UHGV virus genome: UHGV-0851987
Reading direction: 5' to 3' (one strand)
Length of the DNA: 31,064 nucleotides
DNA from: a virus
In this document: positions 3,142 to 11,461 of the stretch, piece after piece
Layout of the letters: each line of letters starts with the position of its first letter
Position numbering within the stretch: position 1 is the stretch's first letter
The notes under the pieces: model-generated
Told to the model about the DNA's origin: nothing
Database searches by the model: none
Seen by the model: only the letters and a program-made list of their open reading frames with translations
Position numbers and translations under genes: made by a program

Positions 3142-3173
3142 AGCTCTTACACATTCCAGCCCTGAAAAAGGGC
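3142..3173 (+). promoter_or_regulatory. nutR site (boxA plus boxB)
   Basis: AGCTCTTACA (boxA-like, 3142-3151), spacer CATTCCAG, then GCCCTGAAAAAGGGC (boxB, 3159-3173). Matches lambda nutR as I recall it. Confidence 0.85.
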
Positions 3174-3239
3174 ATCCAATTAAACCACACCTATGGTGTA
3201 TGCATTTATTTGCATACATTCAATCAATTGTTATCTAAG

Positions 3240-3276
3240 GAAATACTTACATATGGTTCGTGCAAACAAACGCAAC
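3240..3276 (-). promoter_or_regulatory. PRE-like promoter with CII-binding TTGC-N6-TTGC repeats
   Basis: Minus strand reads TTGCGTTTGTTTGC (complement of 3262-3275), overlapping the first codons of cII as in lambda PRE. Confidence 0.55.
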
Positions 3277-3549
3277 GAGGCTCTACGAATCGAGAGTGCG
3301 TTGCTTAACAAAATCGCAATGCTTGGAACTGAGAAGACAGCGGAAGCTGTGGGCGTTGATAAGTCGCAGATCAGCAGGTGGAAGAGGGACTGGATTCCAA
3401 AGTTCTCAATGCTGCTTGCTGTTCTTGAATGGGGTGTTGTCGACGACGACATGGCTCGATTGGCACGACAAGTTGCTTCGATTCTCACCAATAAAAAACG
3501 CCCGGTGTGCAAGACCGAGCGTTCTGAACAAATCCAGATGGAGTTCTGA
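3253..3549 (+). CDS. cII: Transcriptional activator CII (lambda type)
   Basis: Translation from ATG 3253 is [84 protein letters not shown]...[10 protein letters not shown], close to my recollection of lambda CII. The track ORF 3193..3549 is over-extended. Confidence 0.95.
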
Positions 3550-3606: not shown

Positions 3607-3728
3607 AGGACAAAATTCACAAACACATACTACGTGATCGCTTCCTGTCCAGCTTCAAGCAGCCTGGTCGATTCCGGGCTGAGTTGGAAAAGGTGAAGCT
3701 GATGCAGAAGGAGAAAGGTCATGAGTAA
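3582..3728 (+). CDS. Small ORF (48 aa) between cII and the replication initiator
   Basis: ATG at 3582 with AGGA upstream; translation [48 protein letters not shown]. Below the track size cutoff. It overlaps the start of the initiator by 8 nt. P22 carries an 'orf48' at the same position as I recall. Confidence 0.4.
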
Positions 3729-4620
3729 CATATCTAATCTAGCCGAAGCCAGAGAGGCCAGAAGGCTACAACAACCGCATCAAAGCAGCGGTAAGGGGTA
3801 TGCCTTGCTGCACCGTAAAATTATGGATGTGCCGTTTTACAAGGACGCAGAAGCTGCGCATCTGTGGATTCACTTAATCCTCAAAGCAAAGCATACGCCT
3901 GAGTATGTAATGACTGACGCAGGAGAAATTCTGGTAGGCAGAGGGAAGCTACTTGGCGGTAGAAACTCTCTGGCGTTTGAAACAGGACTCAAACCAGATC
4001 GCGTTCAGTACCTGCTTAGAAAGTTCAAAAAACTCGGCATGATTGACTGGGTTTCACACGGTAAATTTTCAGTTTTCTCGGTAGAGAAATATGACGATTA
4101 TCAGTCAAATTTTGTACCAGCAGATTACCAGCAAATTACCACCTCAAAGCCAGCAATACCAATGCCTGTAAGCAATACTGTACCAGCAGATTACCAGCAA
4201 ATTACCACAGATAAAGAATATAATAATATTATCTCTAATACTGACGTATTAGAGAGTGCCACAGCAGACAAAAAGTCTGACAAGAAAAAACCTTCCGTCA
4301 GCTGTCAGGATGTTGTCGATGCTTACCACGAAATCCTTCCTGAAGCGCCAAGAATCCGCGCACTGAATGACAAGCGTAAAAACCAGATCCGAACGTTCTG
4401 GCGCAAAGCCGGAGTGATAACCCGCCAGCTTGACGGGCATGGGTTCACGATGCAGGACTGGAGAAATTATTTGAGCTACGTAGGCGAAAATTGCCGATGG
4501 ATGTTCGAAGAACGCCCAAACCATCAACGCGGAACCGTCTGGCACAAAAAGGGATTTGATTTCCTGCTTAACGACAATACCTACCTGAAAGTTCGTGAGG
4601 GTGAACACGATGACCGATAA
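3721..4620 (+). CDS. Replication initiation protein (O-like replisome organizer)
   Basis: ORF in track with RBS GGAGAAAGG before the ATG at 3721. It sits immediately upstream of, and overlaps, the helicase gene. The origin-like iterons lie inside the coding sequence. Confidence 0.85.
4114..4245 (+). repeat. Putative replication origin: two 29-bp direct repeats (iterons) plus AT-rich tract
   Basis: GTACCAGCAGATTACCAGCAAATTACCAC occurs at 4114-4142 and again at 4180-4208, each with an internal ATTACC sub-repeat. Followed by AGATAAAGAATATAATAATATTATCTCTAATA. The arrangement parallels ori-lambda inside gene O. Confidence 0.6.
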
Positions 4621-6046
4621 TTTTTATGCGCCGCCCCATAGCATCGAGGCAGAGCAGGCGGTGATTGGTGGATTGCTTCTGGATGATGACAGCAGTGAGC
4701 GCGTCCAGAAAGTTCTGGCGATGCTGAAGCCTGATTCATTTTACAGCCGACCACACAAAATCCTTTTCGAAGAAATAACCAGAATGCACCGGGAGCAAAA
4801 GCCAGTAGATGGCCTGACGCTTTTCGATGAACTGGAGCGTAAATCGTTAACGGCGTCTGTTGGCGGTTTTGCTTATATCGCTGAGATCGCAAAGAACACG
4901 CCAAGCGCAGCAAACATCGTTGCCTATGCAATGCAGGTTCGTGAAACCGCAATGGAACGCTACGCCATCAACCGCATGACTGAAGCGACGGAATTGCTCT
5001 ATTCCCGCAACGGAATGACTGCAACGCAGAAGTACGAAGCTATTCAGTCGATTTTCACGCAACTGACAGACCATGCAAAAACCGGATCGCGTCGCGGCCT
5101 TCGCTCATTTGGTGAGGTCATGGAAGACTGGGTTAGCGACCTTGAGAAGCGATTTGACCCGTCAGGCGAACAACGAGGAATGAGCACAGGGATCCCATCG
5201 CTGGACAGGATGCTGTCACCGAAAGGTCTGGTGAAAGGCTCTCTGTTTGTCATTGGCGCTCGCCCTAAGATGGGGAAAACGACGCTATACAGCCAGATGG
5301 CAATCAACTGCGCAGTGCATGAGAAAAAGCCCGCTCTGATGTTCAGCCTTGAAATGCCCGGTGACCAGATACTGGAAAAACTGGTAGGGCAGAAGTCAGG
5401 TGTTAACCCAAATATTTTTTACCTTCCAGCGACAAATGACGCTGATGACGGCTATCAGGGTGATTACGATGGTGACTTCAACAGGGCGATCGAAACAGCA
5501 AATCGCTTGAGTGAAATCGACCTGCTTTACATCGACGACACGCCGGGATTATCTCTGGCTCAAATCGTCAGTGAAAGCCGTCGAATCAAGCGAGAAAAAG
5601 GATGTGTTGGCATGATTCTGGTCGATTACCTGACACTAATGACCGCTGAGAAGGCCGATCGCAACGACCTTGCTTACGGCATGATCACCAAAGGACTGAA
5701 GAATCTTGCCAAAGAGCTTGATTGCGTTGTTGTGCTTCTGACACAGCTTAACCGCGCACTGGAAAGCCGAACCAATAAACGCCCATTACCAAGTGACTCA
5801 CGAGATACAGGGCAGATTGAACAGGATTGCGATTATTGGGTGGGGATCCATCGTGAAGGTGCTTTTGATGACAGCGTTCCTCCTGGTGAAACCGAACTAA
5901 TCCTTCGCCTCAATCGTCATGGCAATACCGGCACGGTGTATTGCATTCAGGCAAATGGCGCTATTTATGACACAGACCAACAGTCTGCTGAAATGCGCCG
6001 CCGTGAACGCGAGGAACCGCAGTCCAAGAAGAAAGGAGGATTCTGA
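4610..6046 (+). CDS. Replicative DNA helicase, DnaB family
   Basis: DnaB N-terminal domain (HSIEAEQAVIGGLLLD), Walker A GARPKMGKTT and DnaB-type C-terminal motifs. Start at ATG 4610 after GAGGG; the track start at 4595 is a short over-extension. Confidence 0.9.
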   Translation: MTDNFYAPPHSIEAEQAVIGGLLLDDDSSERVQKVLAMLKPDSFYSRPHKILFEEITRMHREQKPVDGLTLFDELERKSLTASVGGFAYIAEIAKNTPSAANIVAYAMQVRETAMERYAINRMTEATELLYSRNGMTATQKYEAIQSIFTQLTDHAKTGSRRGLRSFGEVMEDWVSDLEKRFDPSGEQRGMSTGIPSLDRMLSPKGLVKGSLFVIGARPKMGKTTLYSQMAINCAVHEKKPALMFSLEMPGDQILEKLVGQKSGVNPNIFYLPATNDADDGYQGDYDGDFNRAIETANRLSEIDLLYIDDTPGLSLAQIVSESRRIKREKGCVGMILVDYLTLMTAEKADRNDLAYGMITKGLKNLAKELDCVVVLLTQLNRALESRTNKRPLPSDSRDTGQIEQDCDYWVGIHREGAFDDSVPPGETELILRLNRHGNTGTVYCIQANGAIYDTDQQSAEMRRREREEPQSKKKGGF

Positions 6047-6315
6047 TGAATAAAAAACAATTAGCCATTCTCGAAAAGGCATGGGATGCACAAATATCAT
6101 GCGCTTTGAAAGAACAGGCACTACCAATAATCCAGACCAAATCGAAAATAGCCAGGCAGTTATGCGATGACGGATTCCTGAACGAAGTTGAGATTACGCG
6201 CCAGATGGTAACGTTCAAAGGGTATGAGATAAATCATCATGGTATAGCGGCGTATTGCTCCCATCTTCCTGATGACGTTGACATTGATGAAATGGAAAGG
6301 GAGATGAAGCAATGA
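6046..6315 (+). CDS. Hypothetical protein (89 aa)
   Basis: ORF in track. Translationally coupled (TGATG) to the helicase, with AAAGGAGGA RBS inside the helicase 3' end. Confidence 0.6.
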   Translation: MNKKQLAILEKAWDAQISCALKEQALPIIQTKSKIARQLCDDGFLNEVEITRQMVTFKGYEINHHGIAAYCSHLPDDVDIDEMEREMKQ

Positions 6316-6340
6316 CCATCTACATCACTGAGCTAATAAC

Positions 6341-6372
6341 AGGCCTGCTGGTAATCGCAGGCCTTTTTATTT
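6341..6372 (+). terminator. Intrinsic terminator (tR2-like position)
   Basis: AGGCCTGC-N8-GCAGGCCT hairpin (6341-6364) followed by TTTTTATTT. Confidence 0.6.
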
Positions 6373-6387
6373 GGGGGAGAGTAAATC

Positions 6388-6594
6388 GTGGCTGAGTTTA
6401 TGCTCGTCGCACTCAAATGCGTTGGCGTTGGATGGATTCTTCTGTCGTTTTTTATTGTTCTGCATAGCTACATTCGTCTTGTGAATGACGGTAAAGACCC
6501 ATGGTATACGTTGTTTGGCGCTGCATTTGTCTGGGTGATTATCGGTGTTATGCCTGTCGCTGTAGCAAAAATGGCGTGGCGTTTTGTTAGTTGA
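6388..6594 (+). CDS. Small membrane protein (68 aa, two predicted TM helices), GTG start
   Basis: ORF in track. GGGGGAGAG RBS 6 nt before GTG 6388. Two hydrophobic segments (VALKCVGVGWILLSFFIVL and LFGAAFVWVIIGVMPVAVA). Confidence 0.5.
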   Translation: MAEFMLVALKCVGVGWILLSFFIVLHSYIRLVNDGKDPWYTLFGAAFVWVIIGVMPVAVAKMAWRFVS

Positions 6595-6601
6595 GGTAAC
6601 G

Positions 6602-7048
6602 ATGAAGCAAATATACATGCTTCGCAACGAAGCAATCAGAAACAACGCCATAGACGCAATACTCTCACTTCCGATCGACGACAAGTCACCTCACGAAGTC
6701 CACATTAAAGAACCAAAGCGGAGCAATCCTCAAAACCGCCTTATGTGGGCGTTATTGCAGGACGTATCGCGTCAGGTGCTCTGGCATGGAGAGAGACTTG
6801 CGCCGGAGGACTGGAAAGATCTGTTCACTGCCCTGTGGCTTAAGACCAAAAAACTGGAGCAACGAAGTGCGCCTGGTATCGACGGTGGCGTTGTTATGCT
6901 TGGCGTGCGTACCAGCAAAATGCGAAAGGCCAGTATGACTGAGCTTATCGAAATCATGTTCTGGTTCGGCTCAGAGCGCAACGTGCGGTGGAGTGATGAC
7001 TCCCGGAGAGAGTATGAATGGTCACAACGAAAAGGGAGAGCTGCATGA
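6602..7048 (+). CDS. ninB: NinB-like recombination protein
   Basis: Resembles my recollection of lambda NinB (shared motifs QNRLMWALLQDVSRQV.WHG, GVRTSKM, ERNVRWSD). Start at ATG 6602 after GAGG. Confidence 0.8.
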   Translation: MKQIYMLRNEAIRNNAIDAILSLPIDDKSPHEVHIKEPKRSNPQNRLMWALLQDVSRQVLWHGERLAPEDWKDLFTALWLKTKKLEQRSAPGIDGGVVMLGVRTSKMRKASMTELIEIMFWFGSERNVRWSDDSRREYEWSQRKGRAA

Positions 7049-7572
7049 CTATCAAATCAAATACCCCGGCACACGACAAGGACTGCTGGAGAACGCCGCT
7101 TTGGCTTTTTGATGCACTGGATATTGAGTTTGGATTCTGGCTGGATTCGGCAGCGAGCGACAAAAATGCTCTGTGCGCTCACTGGCTAACTGAGGCTGAC
7201 GACGCGCTAAATTCTGAGTGGATAAGCCACGGTGCAATCTGGAATAACCCACCGTACAGCAATATCAGGCCGTGGGTGGAAAAAGCCGCTGAGCAGTGCA
7301 TACAACAGCGACAGACGGTAGTGATGCTTGTGCCAGAGGATATGTCTGTCGGATGGTTCAGCAAGGCTCTGGAGAGTGTTGACGAAGTTCGTATTATCAC
7401 TGATGGACGGATTAATTTTATCGAACCATCGACAGGGCTGGAGAAGAAGGGAAACAGCAAAGGTTCCATGCTGCTGATTTGGCGACCGTTCATCAGTCCT
7501 CGACGGATGTTTACTACCGTATCCAAAGCGGCATTGATGGCGATCGGGCAGGGCGTCAGGAGGGCGGCATGA
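7045..7572 (+). CDS. DNA N6-adenine methyltransferase (phage Dam-like, orphan)
   Basis: NPPY catalytic motif (IWNNPPYSN) and the overall phage Dam family pattern. ATGA overlap with the ninB stop; GGGAGAG RBS. Confidence 0.8.
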
Positions 7573-9063: not shown

Positions 9064-9248
9064 ACGCCACAATTCAAACGATACCAGAGCTTCTTATCCA
9101 GACACGAGGCAATCAGACCGAAGTGGCGAGGATGCTTTCCTGCGCAAGAGGAACAGTGCTCAAGTACAACCGAGACAGCAAAGGCGATCGTCACGTAATA
9201 GTTAACGGCGTCCTGATGGTCAAACAGGGAAAGAGGGGAAGACGATGA
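9060..9248 (+). CDS. ninH: NinH-like protein
   Basis: Core GNQTEVARMLSCARGTVLKY and VNGVLMV resemble lambda NinH. ATGA overlap with the antirepressor stop. Confidence 0.7.
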   Translation: MNATIQTIPELLIQTRGNQTEVARMLSCARGTVLKYNRDSKGDRHVIVNGVLMVKQGKRGRR

Positions 9249-9733
9249 GCATAAGAGAACTAAACCTCACCAAAGAGCAGCACGAGTGGCTGAATGGCTG
9301 GCTTGAACTGTGGGGAGCATGGGTTTATTCAGGCCGCCTGGAAAAGCGCATGAGCAGCGTAATAGCGAAGTTCATGGAGAGCGTAGAGCCGGGAAGAGTT
9401 ATGACAAGGCCAATGTGTAATGATGATGATGGAATGTTGATTTCTCAGGTCGTCGATTCCGTCATGTACATTGACAAGAAAGCCTTTGGCATCCTCCTCA
9501 GCTACTACGCTCATGGATCTTCCAAGCATGCCATTGCATCTTACTATCATCGTGTCGCAAGACCTCGCAAGATGTTATGCCGGGGCGGCGGGCGTATTCA
9601 AAAACCATCGCTCGCAACCTGTCGCCGGGAAGTTGACGAAATCCTCAATGCTTCGTTGTTTATGATTTACCCGGTTCTGGATAGTGCGTTTAAAAATCGG
9701 AAACGTGTAGAGAAAATTAAACATGTAGCATAG
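9245..9733 (+). CDS. Q: Late-gene antitermination protein Q (phage 82 / QuuD-like family)
   Basis: WGAW ... RP.C.DDD motif pattern typical of the Q82/QuuD family. Position immediately upstream of the late promoter region and lysis genes. GAGGGGA RBS; ATGA overlap with ninH. Confidence 0.75.
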   Translation: MSIRELNLTKEQHEWLNGWLELWGAWVYSGRLEKRMSSVIAKFMESVEPGRVMTRPMCNDDDGMLISQVVDSVMYIDKKAFGILLSYYAHGSSKHAIASYYHRVARPRKMLCRGGGRIQKPSLATCRREVDEILNASLFMIYPVLDSAFKNRKRVEKIKHVA

Positions 9734-9824: not shown

Positions 9825-9896
9825 GGGTCAGTCGTATAAAGGTCATTACGGAAGGCTGTTAACCTTCTTATCGTGGTTCGAGTCCACGCTGTCCCG
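9825..9896 (+). tRNA. tRNA-Asn (anticodon GUU)-like, with one acceptor-stem mismatch
   Basis: Hand fold: acceptor GGGTCAG/CTGTCCC (U-U mismatch at 4:69), D-loop with GG, anticodon stem GAAGG/CCTTC with loop CUGUUAA, T-arm CGTGG-TTCGAGT-CCACG, discriminator G, encoded CCA at 9897-9899. Confidence 0.5.
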
Positions 9897-9904
9897 CCAA
9901 ATAT

Positions 9905-9977
9905 GCTGGTTTAGCTCCAATGGTAGAGCAGTCGCCTTGTAAGCGAATGGGTAGCGGTTCAAGTCCGTTAACCAGCA
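9905..9977 (+). tRNA. tRNA-Thr (anticodon UGU)
   Basis: Hand fold: acceptor GCTGGTT/AACCAGC, U8 A9, D-arm GCTC-CAATGGTA-GAGC, anticodon loop CUUGUAA, T-arm AGCGG-TTCAAGT-CCGTT, discriminator A, encoded CCA at 9978-9980. Confidence 0.65.
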
Positions 9978-10222
9978 CCATAACTGAGCCGTAGCCACTT
10001 GCTATCCTGGATTCATCAGTGATAGTTACGCTGCGGCCTTCTACGCATGACCTTCGTGAAAGCGGGTGGCATGAGGTTGCCCTAACAACCTCCTGCCGTT
10101 TTGCCCGTGCATATCGGTCACGAACAAATCTGATTACTAAACACAGTAGCCTGGATTTGTTCTATCAGTAACCGACCATATTCCTAATTAAATAGAGCAA
10201 ATCCCCTTATTGGGGGTAAGAC

Positions 10223-10546
10223 ATGAAGATGCCAGAAAAAAATGACCTGTTAGCCGCCATTCTCGCGGCAAAGGAACAAGGCATCGGGGCAATCCTTGCG
10301 TTTGCAATGGCGTACCTTCGCGGCAGATATAATGGCGGTGCGTTTACAAAAACAGTAATCGACGCAACGATGTGCGCCATTATCGCCTGGTTCATTCGTG
10401 ACCTTCTCGACTTCGCCGGACTAAGTAGCAATCTCGCTTATATAACGAGCGTGTTCATCGGCTACATCGGTACTGACTCGATTGGTTCGCTTATCAAACG
10501 CTTCGCTGCTAAAAAAGCCGGAGTAGAAGATGGTGGAAATCAATAA
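10223..10546 (+). CDS. S: Holin, lambda S type (dual-start MKM motif)
   Basis: Translation [62 protein letters not shown]... is nearly identical to lambda S as I recall it. Confidence 0.95.
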
Positions 10547-11006
10547 TCAACGTAAGGCGTTCCTCGATATGCTGGCGTGGTCAGAGGGAACTGATAACGG
10601 ACGGCAGAAAACCAGAAATCATGGTTATGACGTCATTGTTGGCGGAGAGCTATTCACTGATTACTCCGATCACCCTCGCAAACTTGTCACGCTAAACCCA
10701 AAACTCAAATCAACAGCCGCCGGACGCTACCAGCTTCTTTCCCGTTGGTGGGATGCCTACCGCAAGCAGCTTGGCCTGAAAGACTTCTCTCCCAAAAGCC
10801 AGGACGCTGTTGCGCTGCAGCAGATTAAGGAGCGTGGCGCTTTGCCGATGATTGATCGCGGTGATATCCGTCAGGCAATCGACCGTTGCAGCAATATCTG
10901 GGCTTCATTGCCGGGAGCTGGTTATGGTCAGTTCGAGCATAAGGCTGACAGTCTGATTTCAAAATTCAAAGAAGCAGGCGGAACGGTCAGAGAGATTGAG
11001 GTATGA
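10530..11006 (+). CDS. R: Endolysin, lambda R type (lytic transglycosylase)
   Basis: Translation [51 protein letters not shown]... matches lambda R as I recall it. Confidence 0.95.
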
Positions 11007-11461
11007 GCAGAGTAACCGCGATTATCTCCGCTCTGGTTATCTGCATCATCGTTTGCCTGTCATGGGCTGTTAATCATTACCGTGATAATGCCATCGCCTA
11101 CAAAGAACAGCGTGATAAAAAAGTCAGTGAGCTGAAGCAGGCGACCGCCACCATCGCTGACATGCAGCAGCGTCAGCGTGATGTTGCAGAACTTGACGCC
11201 AGATACACAAAGGAGCTTGCTGATGCTAACGCGACTATCGAAAGTCTCCGTGCTGATGTTTCTGCTGGGCGTAAGCGGCTGCAAGTCGCCGCCACCTGTG
11301 CAAAGTCAACGACCGGAGCCAGCGGCATGGGCGATGGAGAAAGCCCAAGACTTACAGCAGATGCTGAACTCAATTATTACCGTCTCAGAAGTGGAATCGA
11401 CAGGATAACCGCGCAGGTTAACTACCTGCAGGAATACATAAGGACGCAATGCCTTCGATGA
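11003..11461 (+). CDS. Rz: Spanin inner-membrane subunit Rz
   Basis: N-terminal TM segment ([18 protein letters not shown]), coiled-coil periplasmic domain, lambda Rz-like sequence. Confidence 0.9.
11223..11408 (+). CDS. Rz1: Spanin outer-membrane lipoprotein subunit Rz1 (embedded in Rz, +1 frame)
   Basis: Embedded ORF with AGGAG RBS (11211-11215). Lipoprotein signal peptide [20 protein letters not shown] with lipobox, then a proline-rich stretch. Confidence 0.75.

Follow-up and report, generated by a model that had tools for sequence, protein, structure and literature searches.

A conserved phage gene behind the tR2 terminator in the nin region of a P22-like phage, predicted to encode a small two-helix membrane protein

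T4 Imm, HK97 gp15, and P22 SieA and SieB are small, hydrophobic, phage-encoded exclusion proteins of the inner membrane that are non-essential for the phage; several of the known exclusion proteins are very hydrophobic and have two transmembrane (TM) helices, and T4 Imm is the product of an early lytic gene. In phage lambda, passage through the terminator tR2 is achieved by N-modified RNA polymerase in the delayed-early phase, and the genes of the pR operon are repressed in lysogens. Published measurements put maximal termination at tR2 at about 0.9 and indicate that ribosomes close to the hairpin, among them those that initiate at the NinA site, affect it (PMC4824070). The nin region has been described as a 'chain of interlinked genes' (with citation of Kroger & Hobom 1982), and a published model of lambdoid mosaicism treats conserved inter-gene boundary sequences as targets of recombination (PMC3233612).

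The window analysed here is the whole 31,064-nucleotide sequence of the virus genome UHGV-0851987, a P22-like phage (Lederbergvirus) related to Sf6 and HK620. Its early region follows the lambda order, with an N-like gene, cI, cII, O, helicase, NinB, Dam, and Q. The gene for an N-like antitermination protein (1418–1801; phrog_271, E = 4.5e-28) and the repressor gene (2147–2848) are located on the minus strand, where a possible nutL boxA, TGCTCTTAA, is also found at 1945–1953. Downstream of cro, a nutR-like site (3143–3174, plus strand; putative in function) consists of a boxA-like AGCTCTTA and the boxB GCCCTGAAAAAGGGC, which we take to be identical to the boxB of lambda nutR. The cII-like gene (3193–3549), the O-like gene (3721–4620), and a helicase gene (4595–6046), the homologs of which are annotated as DnaB-like helicase, are followed by an 89-aa ORF (6046–6315, plus strand; phrog_2239, function unknown) that is ATGA-linked to both the helicase gene and the NinA mini-ORF. 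Further downstream, ninB, coding for the Orf recombination mediator (6602–7048, plus strand; PF05772, E = 1.6e-48), is ATGA-linked to the gene of a Dam-type N6-adenine DNA methyltransferase (7045–7572, plus strand; PF05869, E = 1.3e-64). The tRNA genes Asn-GTT and Thr-TGT (9825–9980, plus strand) lie just past the Q-like gene (9245–9733), an arrangement also seen in phage 21 and Sf6, and the lysis cassette occupies positions 10223–11461, including the holin gene (10223–10546; phrog_126).

Between the replication genes and ninB, the window carries a hairpin followed by a 68-codon ORF. The terminator scan identified a stem-loop at 6341–6364 with eight pairs, six of them G-C, and an 8-nt loop, followed by the T-run TTTTTATTT at 6365–6372, and RNA folding of positions 6325–6400 returned the same 8-bp stem, with an MFE of -25.3 kcal/mol for the whole segment. 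A stretch of 42 nt, AAGGCCTGCTGGTAATCGCAGGCCTTTTTATTTGGGGGAGAG, comprising the hairpin, the T-run, and the Shine-Dalgarno sequence GGGGGAGAG, is invariant when lambda, HK620, HK022, and Sf6 are aligned with the window. It carries the tR2 annotation in HK620 and Sf6, and the Sf6 record also labels it 'bsq6; boundary sequence'. Judged by this sequence identity and by its position between the replication genes and ninB, the terminator at 6341–6372 (plus strand) is the counterpart of lambda tR2. Exact tR2 was present in 111 of the 130 distinct flanks, and a tR2-like hairpin in a further 11.

The ORF itself, MAEFMLVALKCVGVGWILLSFFIVLHSYIRLVNDGKDPWYTLFGAAFVWVIIGVMPVAVAKMAWRFVS, occupies positions 6388–6594 of the plus strand, with a GTG start and a TGA stop, and its start is separated from the T-run of tR2 by 15 nt. 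The Shine-Dalgarno sequence GGGGGAGAG (6373–6381, plus strand), the GGAG core of which ends 8 nt upstream of the GTG, closes the conserved boundary sequence at its 3' end; a G-rich sequence of this type was found in all 130 distinct flanks, in 115 of them exactly as GGGGGAG(A/G)G. An in-frame ATG at codon 5 is unconserved, being replaced by Ile in the other of the two clades described below, which favours initiation at the GTG (6388). A preliminary description made from the nucleotide sequence had proposed a 68-codon ORF with a GTG start and a strong ribosome-binding site, placed in the nin region directly behind a hairpin terminator, and these points stand, with ninB as the next gene.

The gene that follows GGGGGAGAG differs between phages: it is ninB in lambda, gene 46 in Sf6, and the 68-codon ORF in the window, HK620, and HK022. 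Since phages with different next genes have AAGGCCTGCTGGTAATCGCAGGCCTTTTTATTTGGGGGAGAG in common, the strong ribosome-binding site is a conserved ninB-type Shine-Dalgarno sequence that serves whichever cassette follows. In lambda, the identical sequence drives ninB directly, whereas in the window the 68-aa ORF stands between the two, and ninB is read from a start of its own, 7 nt past the stop of this ORF. Various small genes seem to accumulate in the slot behind tR2; the different gene found there in Sf6, gene 46, lies at 893–1219 of locus L244, and the 68-aa gene of locus L003 is followed by an ORF of 108 aa, hydrophobic at its N-terminus (MADWQIPIIILAGASLVAGFILL...).

The 68-aa ORF should be distinguished from NinA. 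A 27-codon NinA-like ORF, MTIYITELITGLLVIAGLFIWGRVNRG, at 6312–6395 of the plus strand, runs through the tR2 hairpin and corresponds to the gene annotated as NinA in HK620, HK630, and Sf6, where it is gene 45; the P22 NinA is 26 aa long. In all four of these phages, the NinA mini-ORF begins about 30 nt upstream of tR2 and continues across the hairpin. In the window, the ATG of this ORF shares an ATGA with the stop of the 89-aa ORF, and its TGA (6393–6395) is situated inside GTGGCTGA, 8 nt into the 68-aa ORF; it thus overlaps the first codons of the latter in another frame. Naming the 68-aa ORF NinA was therefore rejected in view of the HK620, HK630, Sf6, and P22 annotations, and the BLAST rows labelled 'ninA' arise because the two features overlap, nothing more. 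NinA of P22, lambda, phage 21, and HK620 thus belongs to the same locus as the 68-aa ORF but is the neighbouring gene, and the original annotation of HK620 leaves the 68-aa ORF uncalled as a gene separate from NinA. Given the reported effect of ribosomes near tR2 (PMC4824070), translation of the NinA-like ORF could tune read-through of tR2 and couple into the 68-aa ORF. In some Salmonella genomes, the NinA frame is fused in-frame with the 68-aa ORF, giving a 93-aa call.

Three scans of IMG/VR yielded 238 viral loci with 87 distinct DNA versions of the 68-aa ORF. The frame is intact in 86 of the 87, all of exactly 68 codons, and codon 1 is GTG in 76 versions and ATG in 11; the single exception (locus L074, 17–220) has a premature stop at codon 15 and is likely a pseudogene. 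Both of the other plus-strand frames and one minus-strand frame contain stops in every version, and of the remaining minus-strand frames, one lacks stops in 76% and the other in 36% of versions. Pairwise Nei-Gojobori dN/dS values among representatives were in the range of 0.26–0.51, with a median of 0.33 (3082 pairs); values of about 0.3–0.5 point to a merely moderate constraint on the ORF.

The sequences fall into two deep clades, of which clade A includes the window, HK620, and Salmonella P22-like phages, and clade B includes HK022, HK75, and Stx2 phages. Over codons 2–48, identity between the clades is 0.22–0.45 at third positions, which are saturated, and 0.55–0.64 at first and second positions, with pS of 0.78 and pN of 0.41 (Fisher p = 2.6e-4). 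Amino-acid identity between the clades is 40% in the reading frame of the ORF and 20–28% in the other two plus-strand frames, while the codon-complementary antisense frame reaches 39%, yet is interrupted by a stop. For an Erwinia prophage homolog, protein identity is 44% and synonymous sites are likewise saturated. By these comparisons the 68-codon frame is a real conserved phage gene.

On the minus strand of the window, an open frame of 105 aa (6367–6684) runs antisense to the 68-aa gene and to the beginning of ninB. In 24% of the homologous variants this frame contains stops, and we consider the ORF a probable artefact, produced by hydrophobic-codon composition. One could argue that the 68-codon frame is a chance one, or that the antisense ORF is the real gene, and that conservation hitch-hikes with the tR2 boundary; such a view would draw on the openness of the minus-strand frame in the window and in most variants, on the conservation of the flanks at the DNA level, and on the omission of the 68-aa ORF from the original HK620 annotation and from some PGAP annotations. 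We regard this as extremely improbable, since the plus-strand frame is far more regularly intact than the antisense one, its Shine-Dalgarno sequence and start codon are conserved, and pN stays well under pS across the diverged core, whereas the antisense ORF would oppose the whole early-right operon and enter ninB, and antisense frames are often open opposite DNA coding for hydrophobic residues.

It could also be that the frame is a translated spacer, in which mere translation from tR2 to ninB keeps the coupling and avoids Rho-dependent polarity, and the peptide has no function. The nin genes have been presented as a tightly interlinked translational chain (with citation of Kroger & Hobom 1982), Rho-dependent terminators are reported for the lambda nin region (with reference to Cheng et al. 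1995), and lambda, P22, and Sf6 dispense with the 68-aa gene. A spacer would not be expected to preserve particular residues, length, or hydrophobicity; the length, however, is fixed at 68 codons, constraint at the amino-acid level outlasts saturated synonymous divergence, and W16, K36, G53, P56, K61, and W64, together with the hydrophobic pattern, are invariant from E. coli phages to Erwinia prophages, which makes this explanation very unlikely.

Searches assigned the protein to phrog_1165, a PHROG listed as function unknown, with E = 1.3e-38 and residues 1–68 aligned to positions 1–68 of the 68-position profile; all 14 diverse relatives tested matched the same profile, and the distant members of the family are 63–66 aa long. 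Length and synteny agree with this assignment, the gene being the first of the nin region after the replication genes. A word-indexed search of 5.8 billion proteins found 59 cluster representatives with identities of 51–97%, nearly all of 68 aa; the named ones among them are all from Escherichia or Salmonella, and all are 'hypothetical protein'. A HMMER profile search of 1.84 billion representative proteins gave only 25 matches, including relatives of 63–66 aa, and linked no annotated family to the 68-aa protein.

The protein is encoded in 107 phage records, among them HK022 (HK022_58), HK75, HK629/630, mEp235, mEp213, HK633, HK620 (where it is uncalled), Salmonella phages SPN9CC and Emek, and 48 Stx2a-converting phages. 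Matches were present in 539 of 5426 complete E. coli genomes, 228 of which contain a near-full-length match of the window's clade; PGAP lists the product in E. coli genomes as 'hypothetical protein' (e.g., WP_000807329.1, with 99.5% nucleotide identity) or leaves it uncalled. Full-length similarity places the protein in one family with phrog_1165 and WP_000807329.1, represented by HK022_58, the unnamed CDS of HK633, mEp213, HK75, and HK629, and orf70 of Stx2-converting phage 86. The window copy is 94–99.5% identical to those of HK620, HK633, and E. coli prophages, which occupy the same place behind tR2, and it differs in a few residues (e.g., S20 for T20), none of the differences being substantive. 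The 68-aa protein is, accordingly, a member of an already catalogued family of hypothetical proteins.

Scans of the ORF and diverged relatives against Pfam, NCBIfam, and PADLOC returned nothing above threshold, and PADLOC assigned 0 families to three family members. The sub-threshold matches, to T4SS_pilin (E = 0.08), DUF202 (E = 0.01), and Mnh subunit G (E = 0.016), were dismissed as noise due to hydrophobicity. The T4SS pilin match (PF18895) scored 13.4 bits (E = 0.081), short of the cut-off at 26.6, and was rejected as a likeness of hydrophobic composition only. A Foldseek comparison of the AlphaFold model with BFVD and PDB gave no match at E <= 0.001, as a two-helix hairpin is too generic a fold. 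No RNA family was found in the region of the ORF by Rfam, and a search of the accessible literature revealed no functional or expression study of the 68-aa ORF.

The 3' end of the gene differs from the rest in its conservation. Codons 49–68 with the stop (6532–6594, plus strand) are about 96% identical at the nucleotide level between clades A and B and may represent either a mosaic junction or a conserved gene end; identity is 96–97% at all three codon positions, with one synonymous difference in a representative pair, and many E. coli genomes match nucleotides 145–207 of the ORF only. Identity between the clades extends precisely to the stop codon; the genes that come next vary, being NinB types, an approximately 100-aa 'MDESRKQFEE...' family, or others. 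The gene end thus resembles a second recombination 'boundary', and, taken with the conserved tR2 and Shine-Dalgarno sequence upstream, the 68-aa gene looks like a cassette flanked by two recombination-prone conserved ends; near-identity of its last 60 nt between the clades could be due to recombination instead of selection on the protein. Nevertheless, comparison of the last 20 codons of the Erwinia and window genes gave pS of 0.75 and pN of 0.30, and over such diverged DNA these values show that the C-terminal motif is under protein-level selection too. Lambda, P22, and Sf6 lack the gene, their slot being occupied by ninB or gene 46, and it is therefore dispensable. We propose that the cassette was dropped between the conserved boundary sequence, with tR2 and the Shine-Dalgarno sequence, and whichever nin gene follows.

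The preliminary description had also suggested a small membrane protein with two TM helices and called for TM prediction. We looked for two hydrophobic stretches of at least 19 residues with Kyte-Doolittle values above 1.6 and a polar turn between them, and found 19-residue maxima of 2.34 (residues 6–25) and 2.38 (residues 42–60) separated by the polar turn NDGKDP (N33–P38). The AlphaFold2 model, based on a 31-sequence alignment, consists of helices 2–33 and 38–67 with a mean pLDDT of 91, in agreement with the suggestion. From hydropathy and the AlphaFold helices, TM helix 1 is predicted at about residues 11–29 (6418–6474, plus strand) and TM helix 2 at about residues 41–60 (6508–6567, plus strand), followed by the basic tail KMAWRFVS; these boundaries are approximate. 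The N-terminus contains basic K10 and acidic E3, the loop has two basic and two acidic residues, and the C-terminal tail has two basic residues (K61 and R65) and no acidic ones. By the positive-inside rule, this charge pattern suggests that both ends are probably cytoplasmic and the NDGKDP turn periplasmic. W16, F21, L31, K36, I52, G53, P56, V57, A58, A60, K61, M62, A63, W64, and F66 are invariant in the close family, and the G, P, and W of TM helix 2 and the tail are still invariant in the broad alignment.

Class II holins and pinholins are similar to the 68-aa protein in that they are about 70 aa long and have two TM helices and a basic C-terminus. They differ from it in that the 68-aa ORF belongs to the early operon and its C-terminal tail has eight residues with two basic charges. 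A holin function was rejected, the ORF being located outside the lysis cassette and matching no holin family. A type I toxin-antitoxin membrane toxin, which would be a short single-TM peptide paired with an overlapping antisense sRNA gene, was likewise rejected, given the two TM helices, the lack of an Rfam match, and the promoter scan of positions 5800–7200, in which no promoter-like site was detected on the minus strand.

Apart from one weak site upstream of tR2, the promoter scan found nothing promoter-like on the plus strand around the GTG, including the 15 nt that separate it from the T-run. A contig scan with a narrower alignment retrieved three loci. Homologs in Erwinia and Izhakiella occupy the corresponding position, with replication genes before and NinB after them, and lack a terminator: in Erwinia endophytica the homolog overlaps a 77-aa relative of the 89-aa ORF (locus L241, 2771–3004) by ATGA, and in Izhakiella capsodis the ATGA overlap is with the helicase gene. 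Locus L241, in the Erwinia prophage, has the NinB-Dam pair as well. The 89-aa ORF was not upheld as a conserved partner, preceding the 68-aa gene in only 6 of 136 distinct E. coli/Salmonella loci.

The ATGA-coupled homologs without a terminator, the overlap of the GTG with the NinA stop, and the adjoining ninB show that the 68-aa gene is a link in the nin chain, and the earlier view of it as a stand-alone gene has to be abandoned. Of the two modes of expression that had been envisaged, a local promoter finds no place in the 15 nt available, while dependence on antitermination is supported by the N-like gene and the nutR-like boxB of the window, with N itself as the likely factor. The absence of an own promoter, the overlap with NinA, the N-like gene, and nutR make N antitermination in the delayed-early phase the best reading. 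The 68-aa gene would be the first one behind tR2 in the early-right (pR) operon and would be transcribed only when RNA polymerase passes this terminator. The nutR-like site is the likely loading site of N-modified RNA polymerase, which would then read through tR2; most transcription would thus be due to N/nut-modified polymerase in the delayed-early lytic phase, accompanied by a small basal read-through. Translation would begin from GGGGGAGAG, possibly coupled to termination on the NinA mini-ORF.

The same data bear on the idea that the gene is a stand-alone, moron-like unit with its own promoter or expressed in lysogens, encoding a superinfection-exclusion factor or a small membrane toxin. 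The protein is small and very hydrophobic with two TM helices, as noted above for several known exclusion proteins; otherwise similar phages differ in whether they carry the cassette, its downstream neighbours vary, and its prophage spread among complete E. coli genomes is wide. At the same time, the promoter scan and the coupling to upstream genes, in the distant homologs even without a terminator, argue against an independent unit, and genes of the pR operon are repressed in lysogens, as known from lambda. PADLOC, Pfam, and NCBIfam gave no match, and the promoter scan of the minus strand detected nothing from which an antitoxin antisense RNA could be transcribed. We therefore consider the moron-like unit distinctly unlikely, and a toxin expressed from the prophage is not favoured.

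We find it quite probable that the gene encodes a small inner-membrane hairpin protein that is made in the delayed-early phase and acts in the membrane of the infected cell. Its role there can be proposed tentatively: our best guess is a non-essential protective or modulatory role in lytic development. Protection could consist in blocking the entry of a superinfecting genome or in blunting a host response that acts at the membrane. The invariant motif IG..PVA.AKMAW.F of TM helix 2 and the juxtamembrane segment might bind a conserved membrane partner, a suggestion of low certainty. A search for exclusion or defence homologs of the 68-aa ORF found no functional match in PADLOC, Pfam, NCBIfam, or PHROG, and the resemblance to T4 Imm, HK97 gp15, and P22 SieA/SieB is an analogy only, with no relationship detected in sequence or fold; the 68-aa gene also differs from these in having no promoter of its own. 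In a bolder version, which we consider unlikely, phrog_1165 would represent a new class of delayed-early inner-membrane effectors of lambda-like phages that dock onto a conserved host inner-membrane protein through TM helix 2 and the KMAW segment and either exclude superinfecting DNA during lytic growth or counter a membrane-acting abortive-infection system. If this were true, the fast-diverging TM helix 1 and loop would reflect an arms race.

The current understanding of lambdoid phage biology is unchanged by these findings, and the feature is an ordinary one. The gene is found in the model phages HK022 and HK620, in Stx2-converting phages, and in about one tenth of complete E. coli genomes, where it is sometimes unannotated. 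As a real, constrained, predicted membrane protein encoded behind tR2, its product would be a cheap target for functional testing, and the locus illustrates, in textbook fashion, how a cassette inserted at a conserved 'boundary sequence' takes over its neighbour's ribosome-binding site.
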